DNA from: Promethearchaeia archaeon
GTDB lineage: Archaea; Asgardarchaeota; Lokiarchaeia; Sigyniarchaeales; SOKP01
DNA length: 51,296 bases
Assembly (NCBI GenBank): GCA_029856125.1
Contig: JAHQWJ010000025.1
Span: 1 to 51,296, forward strand
Reading direction: 5' to 3'
This document shows positions 5,165 through 25,688 of the stretch, piece by piece. The notes under the pieces are model-generated. The model did no database searches. It was not told the origin of the DNA and was given only the letters and a program-made list of their open reading frames with translations. The position numbers and the translations under genes were made by a program. Each line of letters starts with the position of its first letter. Positions within the stretch are counted from its first letter, which is position 1.

Positions 5165-5749
5165 TTAGTATTCTTCGCATTTTTTTCTGAAATAATCTCT
5201 TGGATGTGAACAGCTTGGGCATGTAAAGTCCTCTGGAAGTTCGTCTAATTCAACTTGGTAACCACACTCAAGACATATCCATACTACTTTATCCCCTCGT
5301 TTAAAGAAGATATCGTCGCCTACTAATTTTAACAACTTGCCATACCTCTCTGAATGATGTTTTTCTGCGGAGGCAATTGCTCTAAATCTTGCAGCGATTT
5401 CAGGATATCCTTCGTTTTCTGCGATGTCAGCGAAACCGGGATACATCTCCTGCCATTCGTAATCTTCACCCGCAATAGCAGATTTCAGATTTTCTGCTGT
5501 GGTTCCATAAGTAGTAGGACCACCAGCTTTTATCTCTAATTCTTCAAATTTTTCATCTTTCTTAAGGTCCTGGAGCATTTTATAGTTCCAACCACCGTGT
5601 TCTCTTTCTTGATTTGACGTTTCTTCGAAAATTTTTGATATGAGAATATATCCTTCCTTTTTAGCAATTTTAGAAAAAAGAGTATATCTATTTCGCGCTT
5701 GAGATTCTCCCAAGAATGCGGCGAATAAGTTTTCAATTGTTTTTTTCAT
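5165..5749 (-). CDS. rbr: Rubrerythrin
   Basis: [22 protein letters not shown] diiron motifs plus C-terminal CLECG...CPSC. Confidence 0.95.
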
Positions 5750-12730: not shown

Positions 12731-13036
12731 TTGAACTTATGGGGTACTTGGGTTAGTGCTTTACCGCAAACTATCACCCGCCTGAAAAAATTGAAGAAAT
12801 TAGATTTAGACAACACACATTTCAGAGAAATTCCGGACTCGATTGGCGATCTTTCTTCCTTGGAGTATTTAAGTTGTAATCCAAGCAGTTCCTGGCGAGA
12901 TACTATAATAAAAATACCCGATACGATATTAAATTGTAAATCGCTTAAAACCTTGAGGTTGAATAGAGAGACTTTAGAAAACCGTTCTCCGATTATATGG
13001 GAATTAAAAAAAAGAGGAGTCGATGTATCATCGTAA
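12731..13036 (+). pseudogene. C-terminal fragment of a leucine-rich-repeat protein
   Basis: About 3 LRR units starting mid-repeat; in-frame stop at 12713-12715; ends ELKKRGVDV like the 46437 protein (KLEKRGIRV). Confidence 0.65.
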
Positions 13037-13080: not shown

Positions 13081-13202
13081 TTGATAATTATAAAGTTGGA
13101 AAGGTTAAGGCTCAAAAATAAAAATAGATAAAAAATAAATTATTTTCCAAATGCTTTCTTGATAATTTTTACCCCTGAAACTGCGTCATCCGCGAATAAG
13201 TC
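13081..13202 (-). repeat. Right boundary copy of the islet repeat (3' end of the corrinoid gene plus downstream sequence)
   Basis: TTGATAATTATAAAGTTGGAAAGGTTAAGG matches 11022-11051. Confidence 0.6.
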
Positions 13203-13775
13203 AGCTCCGAGCTTTTTGGCAAGTTCCATGTTCAAAGGAGCTCCACCAACGATCAGTTTTACAGAATCCCTTAATCCAGCTGCAATTAAAGCCTCGTGAA
13301 CCACTTTAATTTGTTCAACGGTCATTGTTAATAACGAACTCAAAGCAACAATATTAGCCCCAGTTTCCTTTACTTTATCAATAATAGCATTTTCATCAAC
13401 ATCCATGCCTAAATCGTAGATCTCAAAACCATTGCTCAATAAGAGAGATCCTAAAATATTCTTTCCAATATCGTGATTGTCGCCTTTTACCGTCCCAATA
13501 ATAATCTTTATCTTATCTTGCGATTGATCTGAAGCAGCCAAGGCTGGTTGGAGTACTTTAAACGCTTCCTTCATCGTTTCGCCAGCGAGAACGAGTTCAG
13601 TAAGATAATATTCCTTTTCTTCGTAACGGCGTCCTACTTCGTCCATTCCTTTTGTTAAAGCGTTCATAATATCAAAAGGATCCTTTCCATCTGCTTCTAA
13701 CGCTTCCTTTACAGCAGCCTCAATATCATCTACTTCTAATTCAATAATCAGTTCTGTTAATTTCTCAAAATCCAT
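13140..13775 (-). CDS. Methyltransferase cognate corrinoid protein (MtaC/MttC-like)
   Basis: B12 cap domain GMDEVGRRY; GTVKGDNHDIGKN (DxHxxG), LSSLLT and VGGAP motifs. Confidence 0.93.
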   Translation of the reverse strand: MDFEKLTELIIELEVDDIEAAVKEALEADGKDPFDIMNALTKGMDEVGRRYEEKEYYLTELVLAGETMKEAFKVLQPALAASDQSQDKIKIIIGTVKGDNHDIGKNILGSLLLSNGFEIYDLGMDVDENAIIDKVKETGANIVALSSLLTMTVEQIKVVHEALIAAGLRDSVKLIVGGAPLNMELAKKLGADLFADDAVSGVKIIKKAFGK

Positions 13776-13890
13776 TTCTGACTTCTCTTTACATGATTTG
13801 TAAATATTTAATAATAAAAATCTTACTTAAGATAAATATTTTCTAATTTAATCAAGACAAAAATGTATGATTGAAATTAAAAAAGAAGAT

Positions 13891-14039
13891 AGAGAGAAGC
13901 CGGAAATTGACCTCATAAATGAGGTAAAGATTTTGGGATAAAATTTAGTTCCGTACGTTACCATTTAAATTAGGAAATTCCCCAAATCACGGGAAATCCA
14001 TTTTTGTTAGGGGATATTTTTATTTCTGACTTCCTCTCT
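13891..14039 (-). ncRNA. Putative ~150-nt structured RNA or 5' leader of the corrinoid gene
   Basis: Terminal stem of about 16 bp (14022-14039 with 13891-13907); hairpins UUCCC/GGGAA and ACCUCAU/AUGAGGU; TTTATATA box at 14062-14069; U-tract after the stem. Confidence 0.6.
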
Positions 14040-14194
14040 AAAATACATAATACCATGGCACTATATAAATCTTTGTCTGAAATGTCAATTTCAACCTAAT
14101 ATTTACTTTAAACGTAAAATGATGGCATAAGGTTTTAAATAACTAAGAATTATAGAAAAAAGAATTAAAAGAAGAATTACTCTAAGGATTAAAA

Positions 14195-14938
14195 ATGGAG
14201 AATGAATTTATCGAAGAGGCTCCAGATATAGAGGACATCGCAGTTTTAAACGAGATTAAAGAAGGACACTTATTAATCTTGGCAACTAATTTAGATAAGG
14301 ATTATGAAATTGGCGATTTTATAGTGAGAGCAGTCGACGGAGTCTCAATAAGAATTAAAGAATCTGCATTCATTATTATTAAAGGGCCATCAGGAGCCGG
14401 AAAAACAACCCTGCTTAATTTAATAGGAGGATTGGACACTCCAAATAGAGGATCAATATACTCTAGTGGAGTCAAGATTAGTAACTTAAAAGAAGAATCC
14501 CTTGCTACCTTTAGGTTGATAAATTCGGGATTTATATTCCAGAGCTACAATCTTATAAGCACCCTTACTGCTGAAGAGAACATAATGTTTCCAATGAAAT
14601 TAGCTGGAATGAGTTTAAAAGAACAACGGGAAAGAGCGTTAAATCTCTTAAATAAAGTAGGTTTAGGGGACAGACGAGAACACTTGCCTTTTCAGTTATC
14701 TGCTGGCGAACAACAGAGGGTTGCTATAGCAAGAGCTTTGGCAAACGATCCTCCGATTATAATTGCAGACGAACCTACAGCAAACTTAGACAAAAAAACG
14801 AGTTTATTTATAAGAGATCTCTTTAGCGATATGAAGCAAGAGGGTAAAACTATTATTATTGCAACTCACGATGATTACTTAATAGAACTCGCAAATCGCG
14901 TCATAAATTTTGAAGACGGTAAAATTGTAAATGAATAA
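14195..14938 (+). CDS. ABC transporter ATP-binding protein, LolD/MacB type
   Basis: GPSGAGKT, LSAGEQQRVAIARAL, ADEPT and ATHD motifs. Confidence 0.93.
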   Translation: MENEFIEEAPDIEDIAVLNEIKEGHLLILATNLDKDYEIGDFIVRAVDGVSIRIKESAFIIIKGPSGAGKTTLLNLIGGLDTPNRGSIYSSGVKISNLKEESLATFRLINSGFIFQSYNLISTLTAEENIMFPMKLAGMSLKEQRERALNLLNKVGLGDRREHLPFQLSAGEQQRVAIARALANDPPIIIADEPTANLDKKTSLFIRDLFSDMKQEGKTIIIATHDDYLIELANRVINFEDGKIVNE

Positions 14939-24233: not shown

Positions 24234-25688
24234 TTACTCCTTCAAATCTTCGTAGATTTTCATAAATTCTTCAGGTTTCCATAGTTCCGTCATATATTTA
24301 CCAATTCCGGAACTATCTCGCGGTCCAACTACAACATAAGCATCAGCTTCGTCTTCTAAAGCCCCACTCAAGCGTGCGGCCATACCGGGTATGATTAATA
24401 TACGATGATCTACTTTGTCGAAAGCACCAAATTCTTTTACTGCTTCCGCAATTGATCCTGCGCTAAATTGCCCTCCTGCGACTGCTGATTCAATGCCGAT
24501 ACCCTCTGAATCCACAACTAAGAGCCAGGCGTCTACATTTGCTCCTTTAATATCTATTTCTACAGGAATCTTTGTTAACCGATAATTTGAAGTTACAAAA
24601 ATTGGAGCCATTTTACCAGGTTCTCCTATTTGAAAACAACCAGGATCTGTTGTTGGATAAATACGCGGATCGCTGAATACGCTCTGCCTTAAGGTCATAA
24701 TCGCTAGTAAAGCCCAAATATCTTCTTTCCTCTTACCGCTGTGGAGAACAATTAAACTTGTATCTATAGATTCCATAATCGCTGCCATAATGATTTCTTG
24801 ATATTGATGCTCCCAAAGCTTCTTATCGTCGTCAGTCTTAACTTGACTCCAATAAGCTGCGGGAACTCCCATAACAGGGAAGCCTGAATTCATATCTCCC
24901 TTATCAATTGCTGAAATTCTCAATCTCATTATGTTATCATAAGTTAAGGCTACATTTCCTGGACCAAAAACGGTCATAGCGTCTAAAATTATCTCCTTTA
25001 CACCAAGCTTTTGTAGAGTAGCACTTATAGACATAAGTTCATCTAAGCCACTTGAGACGGCTACAACTGGTAAATTATTTTCAACCGCAAATTTACCTAC
25101 TTTTTCCCATGTATCTTTTGTTGCGGCATAAAGTAGAGGCCTTACTTCTTTAATTTCAGCAGCAGCAGCAAGTAAAATATCGGGATTCAAACAAGCTAGC
25201 ATAATGGGGAGATTAGATGTCTCTGTAAGCTTCTTCGCAGCGAGTTTGTATTGCTCGACGTCTCCAGATACGCATCTTAATGTAATTCCGTTTACTCTTA
25301 ACACATCTCCCATTCTTTCCAGAATTAATGTTGTTAAATACTTAACGACTTCTTCTAAATCCGGATCCTCATCAGCAACCTCCATGAAAATAGCAGTCTC
25401 GTTGTAATATGTTAATTGATGGCGATTAAGAATCTCTTCTCCACCAATTATGCATTTACGGTCACCCACTCCAATTTCAACAGACTTTTGTGGAGGAGTA
25501 ATAAGTACTATTAATTTATCACGTTTTTTCGCCTGTTTTGGATCCTGCATTAAGTGAGTGCAATCTTGAACTATGACTTTCCTTTCGAGCAAATCTGTTC
25601 CGAATGCCATGCAAGTATCTCTCCCACAGTCTTTACAATTACTCTTATCTAAAAGAGCATATATTTCTAACGGGCTGGGTCTGGCCAT
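24234..25688 (-). CDS. cdhE: Acetyl-CoA decarbonylase/synthase gamma subunit (corrinoid Fe-S protein large subunit)
   Basis: NCKDCGRDTCMAF...C Fe-S motif; IGGEE, VTSNY, IIPGMAARLSG and VGPRDSS motifs. Confidence 0.92.
   Translation of the reverse strand: MARPSPLEIYALLDKSNCKDCGRDTCMAFGTDLLERKVIVQDCTHLMQDPKQAKKRDKLIVLITPPQKSVEIGVGDRKCIIGGEEILNRHQLTYYNETAIFMEVADEDPDLEEVVKYLTTLILERMGDVLRVNGITLRCVSGDVEQYKLAAKKLTETSNLPIMLACLNPDILLAAAAEIKEVRPLLYAATKDTWEKVGKFAVENNLPVVAVSSGLDELMSISATLQKLGVKEIILDAMTVFGPGNVALTYDNIMRLRISAIDKGDMNSGFPVMGVPAAYWSQVKTDDDKKLWEHQYQEIIMAAIMESIDTSLIVLHSGKRKEDIWALLAIMTLRQSVFSDPRIYPTTDPGCFQIGEPGKMAPIFVTSNYRLTKIPVEIDIKGANVDAWLLVVDSEGIGIESAVAGGQFSAGSIAEAVKEFGAFDKVDHRILIIPGMAARLSGALEDEADAYVVVGPRDSSGIGKYMTELWKPEEFMKIYEDLKE

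Follow-up and report, generated by a model that had tools for sequence, protein, structure and literature searches.

What is the structured element between a corrinoid (B12-binding) protein gene and a divergent ABC ATPase gene in a Lokiarchaeia genome, and on what does it act? A preliminary description of the window (the whole 51,296-nucleotide stretch of DNA analysed here) had proposed that three segments, A, B and C, form a translational switch in which B pairs either with A or with C at the start codon of the corrinoid gene, or else that the element is an sRNA of about 150 nt. The positions of A, B, C, the TATA box and the U-tract were all confirmed in the sequence, as were the 16 pairs between A and B and 14 of 15 pairs between B and C at nearly equal energies (−16.4 and −16.5 kcal/mol, respectively), and the exact 12-mer shared by A and C. 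The absence of a cobalamin riboswitch consensus was also borne out. What did not hold was the three-strand switch, whereas a small RNA of roughly the proposed size, with its own promoter and terminator, fits the features collected in Table 1.

Table 1. Features of the locus, in window coordinates.
Feature	Position	Strand	Remark
Corrinoid (B12-binding) protein gene	13140..13775	minus	PF02310 + PF02607
Segment C, at the corrinoid start	13773..13788	minus	Lineage-specific, probable inverted copy of B
Probable promoter of the corrinoid gene	13807..13824	minus	Predicted
Stand-alone non-coding RNA gene (predicted)	13879..14039	minus	161 nt in the window
U-tract terminator	13879..13889	minus	At least 4 T in a row, no more than 22 nt from the stem, in 65/70 homologues
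Segment B, 3′ arm of closing stem P1	13891..13907	minus
3′ hairpin	13910..13925	minus	Structure kept, sequence variable
Conserved single-stranded AUGGUA...CUAA motifs and U-rich tract	13935..13966	minus
Loop motif m2, second half of putative antisense seed	13968..13979	minus	AAUUUCCUAAUU
Insert 1, optional hairpin between m1 and m2	13980..14006	minus
Loop motif m1, first half of putative antisense seed	14007..14018	minus	AAUAUCCCCUAA
Segment A, 5′ arm of closing stem P1	14022..14039	minus
BRE/TATA promoter of the RNA gene	14061..14076	minus	Predicted to be active
Divergent ABC ATPase gene, upstream neighbour	14195..14938	plus	PF00005

The stretch from A to the U-tract is almost certainly a stand-alone RNA gene. 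In homologous loci this stretch is kept and the flanking sequence has diverged. The TATA box, TTTATATA, occupies positions 14069–14062 on the minus strand, with segment A beginning 22 nt past its end, and a TATA-like box lies 29–34 nt 5′ of the RNA start in 66 of 70 homologues, inverting along with the RNA gene where the gene is inverted. At the other end, U4 tracts of the kind found here are the signal for aCPSF1, and a Loki aCPSF1 orthologue reads U4 tracts too (PMC8716108). The unit from A to the U-tract is predicted to fold more stably than its shuffles (z −2.18; 4/200). Homologues measure 105–168 nt to the end of the stem; the predicted RNA as a whole has about 110–170 bases. The promoter, the terminator and a covariation that includes G-U pairs (see below) together lead us to infer that the gene is transcribed. 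The one assembled RNA run holding the locus (X5) has a contig over the corrinoid coding sequence only (13469–13721), and another (X10) contained nothing relevant to the locus; assembled contigs cannot show absence. Among homologues, the conserved AUG opens frames of only 2–55 codons with frame-breaking indels, so this AUG is not coding; a small ORF was rejected, there being no conserved frame from it, and the gene is non-coding. No Rfam family reaches its gathering score for the element, and the four matches at E ≤ 10 are all weak (E 0.66–2.1), none of them to a riboswitch aptamer family. A sequence-profile search found one copy in the window genome.

The same kind of search matched the RNA gene in 104 of 131 genomes of one Promethearchaeota (Lokiarchaeia) family, including 37/41 genomes of genus g1, 50/53 of g12 and 8/8 of g16, and in none of 19 genomes from other families of the same order. 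There was no strong match elsewhere in the class and none in viruses, and no cultured relative with the gene was found (0/14 genomes of family f2 matched). Named records matching the RNA nearly all bear the label of Promethearchaeota, other Asgard groups or uncultured archaea, and the single true bacterial match is a chance one. A record labelled as a Nanopelagicaceae bacterium (L171) carries this Lokiarchaeia locus, and its label is probably wrong. Divergent versions in g13, g15, g18, g19 and g22 keep AUAUCCC and UUUC(C)UAAUU, while g14 has no RNA at this locus and seems to lack it altogether. At one locus (L328:1–430), two copies of the gene stand in tandem, 296 nt apart, with diverged 3′ hairpins. 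The literature searched, largely outside the subscription journals, contained no description of this RNA, which by its sequence appears to be a new family of Asgard small RNA, in no Rfam family.

Could the element nevertheless be a ligand-sensing translational riboswitch of the corrinoid gene, with A as anti-sequestrator, B as sequestrator and C as start site? In the window B:C is as stable as A:B, and of the genome's 3190 start regions only 7 pair better with B than C does (rank 8th), so that within this genome the match goes beyond mere coincidence; the corrinoid gene, moreover, is the usual downstream neighbour (56/71 loci). However, 6 of the 71 loci have the RNA gene in the reverse orientation to the corrinoid gene, with at least three independent inversion events in g1, and the corrinoid gene is absent from the locus in 9 more. 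The neighbours are unrelated genes in g16, where the RNA gene precedes a gene for a TusA-like or Fe-S protein, and in g21, where it precedes another. The inverted block spans about 200 nt and includes both promoter and terminator (L036, L061, L019, L021, L022, L076, L258, L300); the block that is probably the corrinoid gene's own promoter lies outside the inverted segment and stays before the corrinoid gene. Nor is the ABC ATPase gene an invariant neighbour, other genes replacing it in several g15, g17 and g12 loci. Within the window itself the U-tract separates B from C, no aptamer was matched, and no such element precedes cdhE, the other corrinoid protein gene, in the window genome. Across 62 loci, finally, the pairing energy of B is −7.5 kcal/mol with the cognate corrinoid start and −6.8 kcal/mol with the starts of other genomes; this is the loss of B:C complementarity that the preliminary description had itself named as the evidence against its switch. 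When covariation was checked as it had suggested, A:B covaried and B:C did not. Because B:C is unconserved, the RNA gene inverts and its neighbours change, we reject a switch on the corrinoid gene, which has hardly any chance of being correct, and the locus can be struck off as an archaeal riboswitch candidate that proved false. The corrinoid gene is the usual neighbour and not a conserved target of the RNA.

Several observations concern the corrinoid genes themselves. The protein encoded at the locus is stand-alone and related to MtbC/MtgC, below the cut-offs of their models. On its far side, a short leucine-rich-repeat ORF with a TTG start (window 12731–13036, plus strand) is probably a gene remnant. 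In many family members the corrinoid gene and cdhE (corrinoid Fe-S protein large subunit, named from sequence; window 24234–25688, minus strand) are about 10 kb apart, and cdhE has a conserved AT-rich promoter block. A second RNA-like unit, consisting of a TATA box, a single-stranded, anti-SD-like AUCUCCCCUUA leader and a long stem, precedes cdhE in four g1 genomes (L269, L270, L271, L272) and was not found in the window genome. The notion of paired elements before both corrinoid genes was dropped, the unit before cdhE being different and present in only 4 of 30 cdhE loci.

Segment C then calls for another explanation. The 12-mer common to A and C occurs three times in the 3.69-Mb genome, two of these at the locus, and the 12-nt identity is limited to the three closest genomes. 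A C-type start was seen in 4 of 62 genome loci and 6 of 46 metagenome loci, all in or beside the window's sub-lineage. Inversions in sister genomes have left partial copies of B nearby (at the L036 and L061 breakpoints, these copies and similar flanks persist), on which grounds C is most simply read as an inverted copy of B, now apparently serving as a purine-rich start signal. It is conceivable that, in this sub-lineage only, B gained a second role by pairing with C, either in read-through transcripts or in trans after opening of the stem. About ten related loci have a nearly invariant C, which in L337 complements B exactly; the modelled binding is −8.8 kcal/mol (rank 19/3186), and the transporter site described below decays in the same lineage. 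In those loci, however, B varies without compensation in C, and B would be locked in an equally strong intramolecular stem that forms first; the partial copies left by local inversions offer a neutral origin, and sister lineages do without C. We regard this second role as quite unlikely.

The closing stem formed by A and B covaries. In a test of cognate against non-cognate pairing, the 5′ arm paired with its own 3′ arm at a mean of −18.8 kcal/mol, with arms from the same genus at −17.3 kcal/mol and with arms from other genera at −12.5 kcal/mol, and one P1 pair alternates between G-C (15) and A-U (9). In the outer helix 85% of cells are paired, compared with 46–77% in slid controls, the related sequences inflating the shuffle test. 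RNAalifold gave no consensus on a MAFFT alignment because MAFFT had misaligned the arms of the stem.

It is the loop between these arms, not singled out in the preliminary description, that is the conserved part of the element. The invariant loop reads AUAUCCCCUAA-UUUCCUAAUU: the m1 core, UAUCCCCUA, is present in 70 of 71 homologues, with a mean unpaired probability for m1 of 0.75, and the m2 core, UUUCCUA, in 67; m1 and m2 are the only part retained in the most distant homologues. Between m1 and m2, 22 of 71 homologues, including the window, carry an insert of 25–30 nt; 13 of 71 carry one after m2 instead, and none has both. Nearly all inserts fold on themselves, and the UUCCC/GGGAA hairpin reported earlier, though present, belongs to this optional insert, which most relatives lack. 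Further 3′, the single-stranded motifs AUGGUA (69/71), GGUA-N0-12-CUA (67/71) and UUUUAUCC (42/71) are also conserved, and no complement or partner was found for AUGGUA...CUAA. The 3′ hairpin folds at −3 kcal/mol or better at the same place in 65 of 70 homologues with differing sequences. The corrinoid start was considered as a target of m1 and rejected: pairing of −10 to −11 kcal/mol in part of g1 drops to −3 to −5 kcal/mol in g12.

We searched 81 genomes for the complement of the 20-nt loop, allowing up to two mismatches and using the backwards pattern as a control. This returned 38 self and 46 non-self matches, compared with 8 for the control. Among the non-self matches, 33 lie directly before the start codons of MFS transporter genes, and a further one precedes the start of an aminopeptidase gene that shares the transporters' operon; the remaining 12 are scattered, a number comparable to the 8 control matches. 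The transporters, of 420–430 aa and often in tandem arrays of two or three on other contigs, match MFS_1/MFS_3, with H+ antiporter and Mef models reached only below cut-offs, and are best described from their sequences as Mef-like (DHA3-type) MFS paralogues.

The loop is complementary over 17–20 nt to positions −23 to −3 of these genes, in g12 and in part of g1. For 27 of 28 starts the site begins at −22/−23; it spans an SD-like AGGGG, m1 being complementary to this SD-like half; sites also precede internal cistrons with 45–75-nt gaps. In a held-out set of g12 genomes lying outside the pattern search, with transporter genes fetched by protein similarity, 11 of 17 genomes have such a start, and 13 of 37 starts reach −20 kcal/mol or better, compared with 0 of 3186 starts in the window genome. 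The site is kept across 43 genes whose proteins have a median identity of 50%, and paralogue pairs below 55% protein identity share 87% of the site, a lower bound of 70% being imposed by selection; both offset and orientation are inherited among paralogues, and the target sites are therefore not independent. The loop is invariant wherever the target exists, so that the RNA offers no variation for which a target could compensate, and any wobble signal is weak: A>G counts 8 to A>T 3, though G>A stands at 12. Modelled as full-length RNAs, those lacking insert 1 bind the site in their own genome at −6 to −21 kcal/mol and those with insert 1 less strongly, at −4 to −11 kcal/mol. Taken together, these sequence data make it probable that pairing over the ribosome-binding sites of the MFS array is a real function of the RNA.

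Two side observations were made at the transporter loci. ATA or TTG replaces ATG as the start codon of some MFS genes whose site is intact (L421, L434, L499, L490). A conserved operon, seen in the window's own genome (C146 6937–3774, minus strand) and also in L416, precedes the MFS array; it codes for a protein resembling bactofilin and for an acidic coiled-coil protein whose end is PCI-like, and one or two M29 aminopeptidase genes often come next.

The 20-mer also reads as a direct repeat, ATTAGG-N2-ATTAGG, of 8-bp period, and a weak PCI/winged-helix match comes from the gene that immediately precedes the MFS array; one transcription factor might thus bind it as a DNA operator at both the RNA and the MFS genes, with complementarity as a by-product. 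Such an operator would, however, be split between its halves by 25–30-nt inserts in 22 of 71 RNA genes, when no hairpin insert was ever seen in a target site. The sites are fixed relative to the start codon, including that of internal cistrons, with no promoter motif conserved upstream of them, and in the RNA a covarying stem holds the motif single-stranded. Where the RNA carries insert 1, the target sites in that genome are contiguous all the same, a pattern that fits an RNA duplex looping out the hairpin but does not fit a DNA operator. We consider an operator highly improbable.

The predicted transporter control does not account for every genome, beginning with that of the window. Here the syntenic operon lies on contig C146, where the site has decayed (16/20, at position 5229, −2.0 kcal/mol) and precedes the stub of a deleted paralogue, 178 nt before an intact MFS gene; four close relatives show the same decay. 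No intact target site was found in the window genome, its best start pairing at −19.5 kcal/mol, and GGGATAT is not enriched among its starts. At E ≤ 1e-60, g13, g14, g16, g18, g19 and g22 yielded no member of the MFS family, and all of these except g14 carry the RNA with its loop; conversely, many MFS paralogues in g1, g15 and g17 have no site. Searches with m1 only in other genera gave 20 sites with no recurring gene family, and no second recurring target. Since the loop is kept where there is no transporter and the site has decayed here, other targets or partners exist: the MFS array is one target and not the whole reason for the invariant loop.

One way to accommodate this would be an RNA whose primary job is to bind a protein or complex through the repeated CUAA/AUGGUA motifs, as a housekeeping or sponge RNP, with MFS pairing recruited later in some lineages. 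The loop stays unchanged in the genera that yielded no MFS family member and in the window genome with its decaying site, AUGGUA...CUAA has no complement that we could find, and the gene is single-copy and near-universal like that of a housekeeping RNA. On the other hand, no candidate partner emerged, with no Ro60/TROVE gene in 61 genomes; separate loci encode the 5S, SRP and RNase P RNAs, there is no perfect 10-nt guide match to 16S or 23S rRNA, g14 seems to lack the RNA, and many partial mRNA targets would explain an invariant loop equally well. We judge this origin unlikely. A related reading makes the RNA the guide of an unrecognised Asgard RNP, for example an Lsm ring on the U-rich tract beside the 3′ hairpin, which would pair over 20 nt with leaders and then, instead of only masking the site, cleave the mRNA or license initiation. 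It was suggested by the AUA/UUG starts of a few site-bearing genes and by the conservation of AUGGUA...CUAA with no complement found, and seems to us very unlikely.

Established RNA identities were considered in the same context. A 5S rRNA in disguise was rejected: RF00001 gave no match in the window genome, and a separate, circularly permuted 5S gene lies on contig C136 (about 15209–15034, minus strand; also in L190–L206). In this permuted gene the back part comes first, helix I is closed by a 4–5-nt loop and an extra stem brackets the whole; RF00001 misses the copy in the window genome and scores 25–33 bits in relatives. The SRP RNA (C126 190383–190148) matches model positions 67–307 only, below cut-off, its 5′ Alu part going unrecognised. 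A box C/D or H/ACA guide was rejected; alignment A2 has no RUGAUGA/CUGA pair.

Matches to rRNA consist of 7–11 pairs interrupted by wobbles or bulges, and most are no better than shuffles, the 23S in question being that of g14, a genus lacking the RNA. There, AUGGUAAC and UUUUAUC pair with the peptidyl-transferase region at −16.9 kcal/mol (0/20 shuffles); a peptidyl-transferase guide was rejected, as there is no pairing with the f2 23S rRNA (16/20) and the spacer and second half vary among homologues. Most 23S rRNAs read GGGAUAACAG at this peptidyl-transferase segment, and in L207 (the G059 23S rRNA) and L208 it reads GGGGGUAACAG. A resembles 16S helix 44, and m1 helix 45, over 7–11 nt; these resemblances are not kept in other genera and were likewise set aside.

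Returning to pairing with the transporter mRNAs, the most likely outcome, judging from the position of the sites, is that the RNA blocks translation. Transcribed from its own promoter, the RNA would have its ends protected by the closing stem, which would also present the loop; the loop would pair with the SD-like ribosome-binding site of each MFS cistron and block initiation, silencing the transporter cistrons within a longer operon. Three Lsm genes were found, and one of their products may assist. In the window's sub-lineage, the first transporter paralogue has been deleted and its site has begun to decay, and here, as in genera without the transporter, the loop would serve other targets or partners. 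No regulatory small RNA or RNA-target pair in Asgard archaea was described in the literature searched. A family-wide RNA with a repeated 20-nt target site makes RNA-based translational control testable by a two-component reporter, in hosts that are the closest prokaryotic relatives of eukaryotes.

Among known systems, cobalamin riboswitches resemble this RNA in location alone: most genomes have it upstream of a gene for a B12-binding protein. It has no aptamer consensus, no fixed orientation or neighbour and no conserved expression platform. Y RNAs are about 100–150 nt long, with a bulged stem joining the 5′ and 3′ ends, a pyrimidine-rich loop and an oligo-U end. In all these traits, size included, the Asgard RNA resembles them; however, with neither a Ro60/TROVE gene in any of the 61 genomes nor an Rfam match, we rejected this identity. 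The RsaE/RoxS RNAs of Firmicutes use duplicated C-rich unpaired motifs to pair with G-rich Shine-Dalgarno-type sites (PMC6158497), and like them the Asgard RNA is conserved across genera and has transport genes among its predicted targets; it differs in its fold and in having no Rfam match, and its two C-rich motifs would be read in tandem on one 20-nt site. The closest reading, by analogy, is a trans-acting anti-ribosome-binding-site sRNA like Methanosarcina sRNA41 and sRNA154, which together with sRNA162 mask ribosome-binding sites, including internal ones in polycistronic mRNAs (PMC5867862, PMC3510493). As in these M. mazei RNAs, a trans-encoded, intergenic gene is predicted to yield its own transcript, whose single-stranded loop or linker would cover the ribosome-binding sites of several targets. 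Unlike them, the predicted Asgard RNA, which shows no sequence relation to the M. mazei sRNAs, has its ends closed by one long stem and a seed that an inserted hairpin can split, is predicted to pair near-perfectly over 17–20 nt at each tandem paralogue, and is kept across a whole family.
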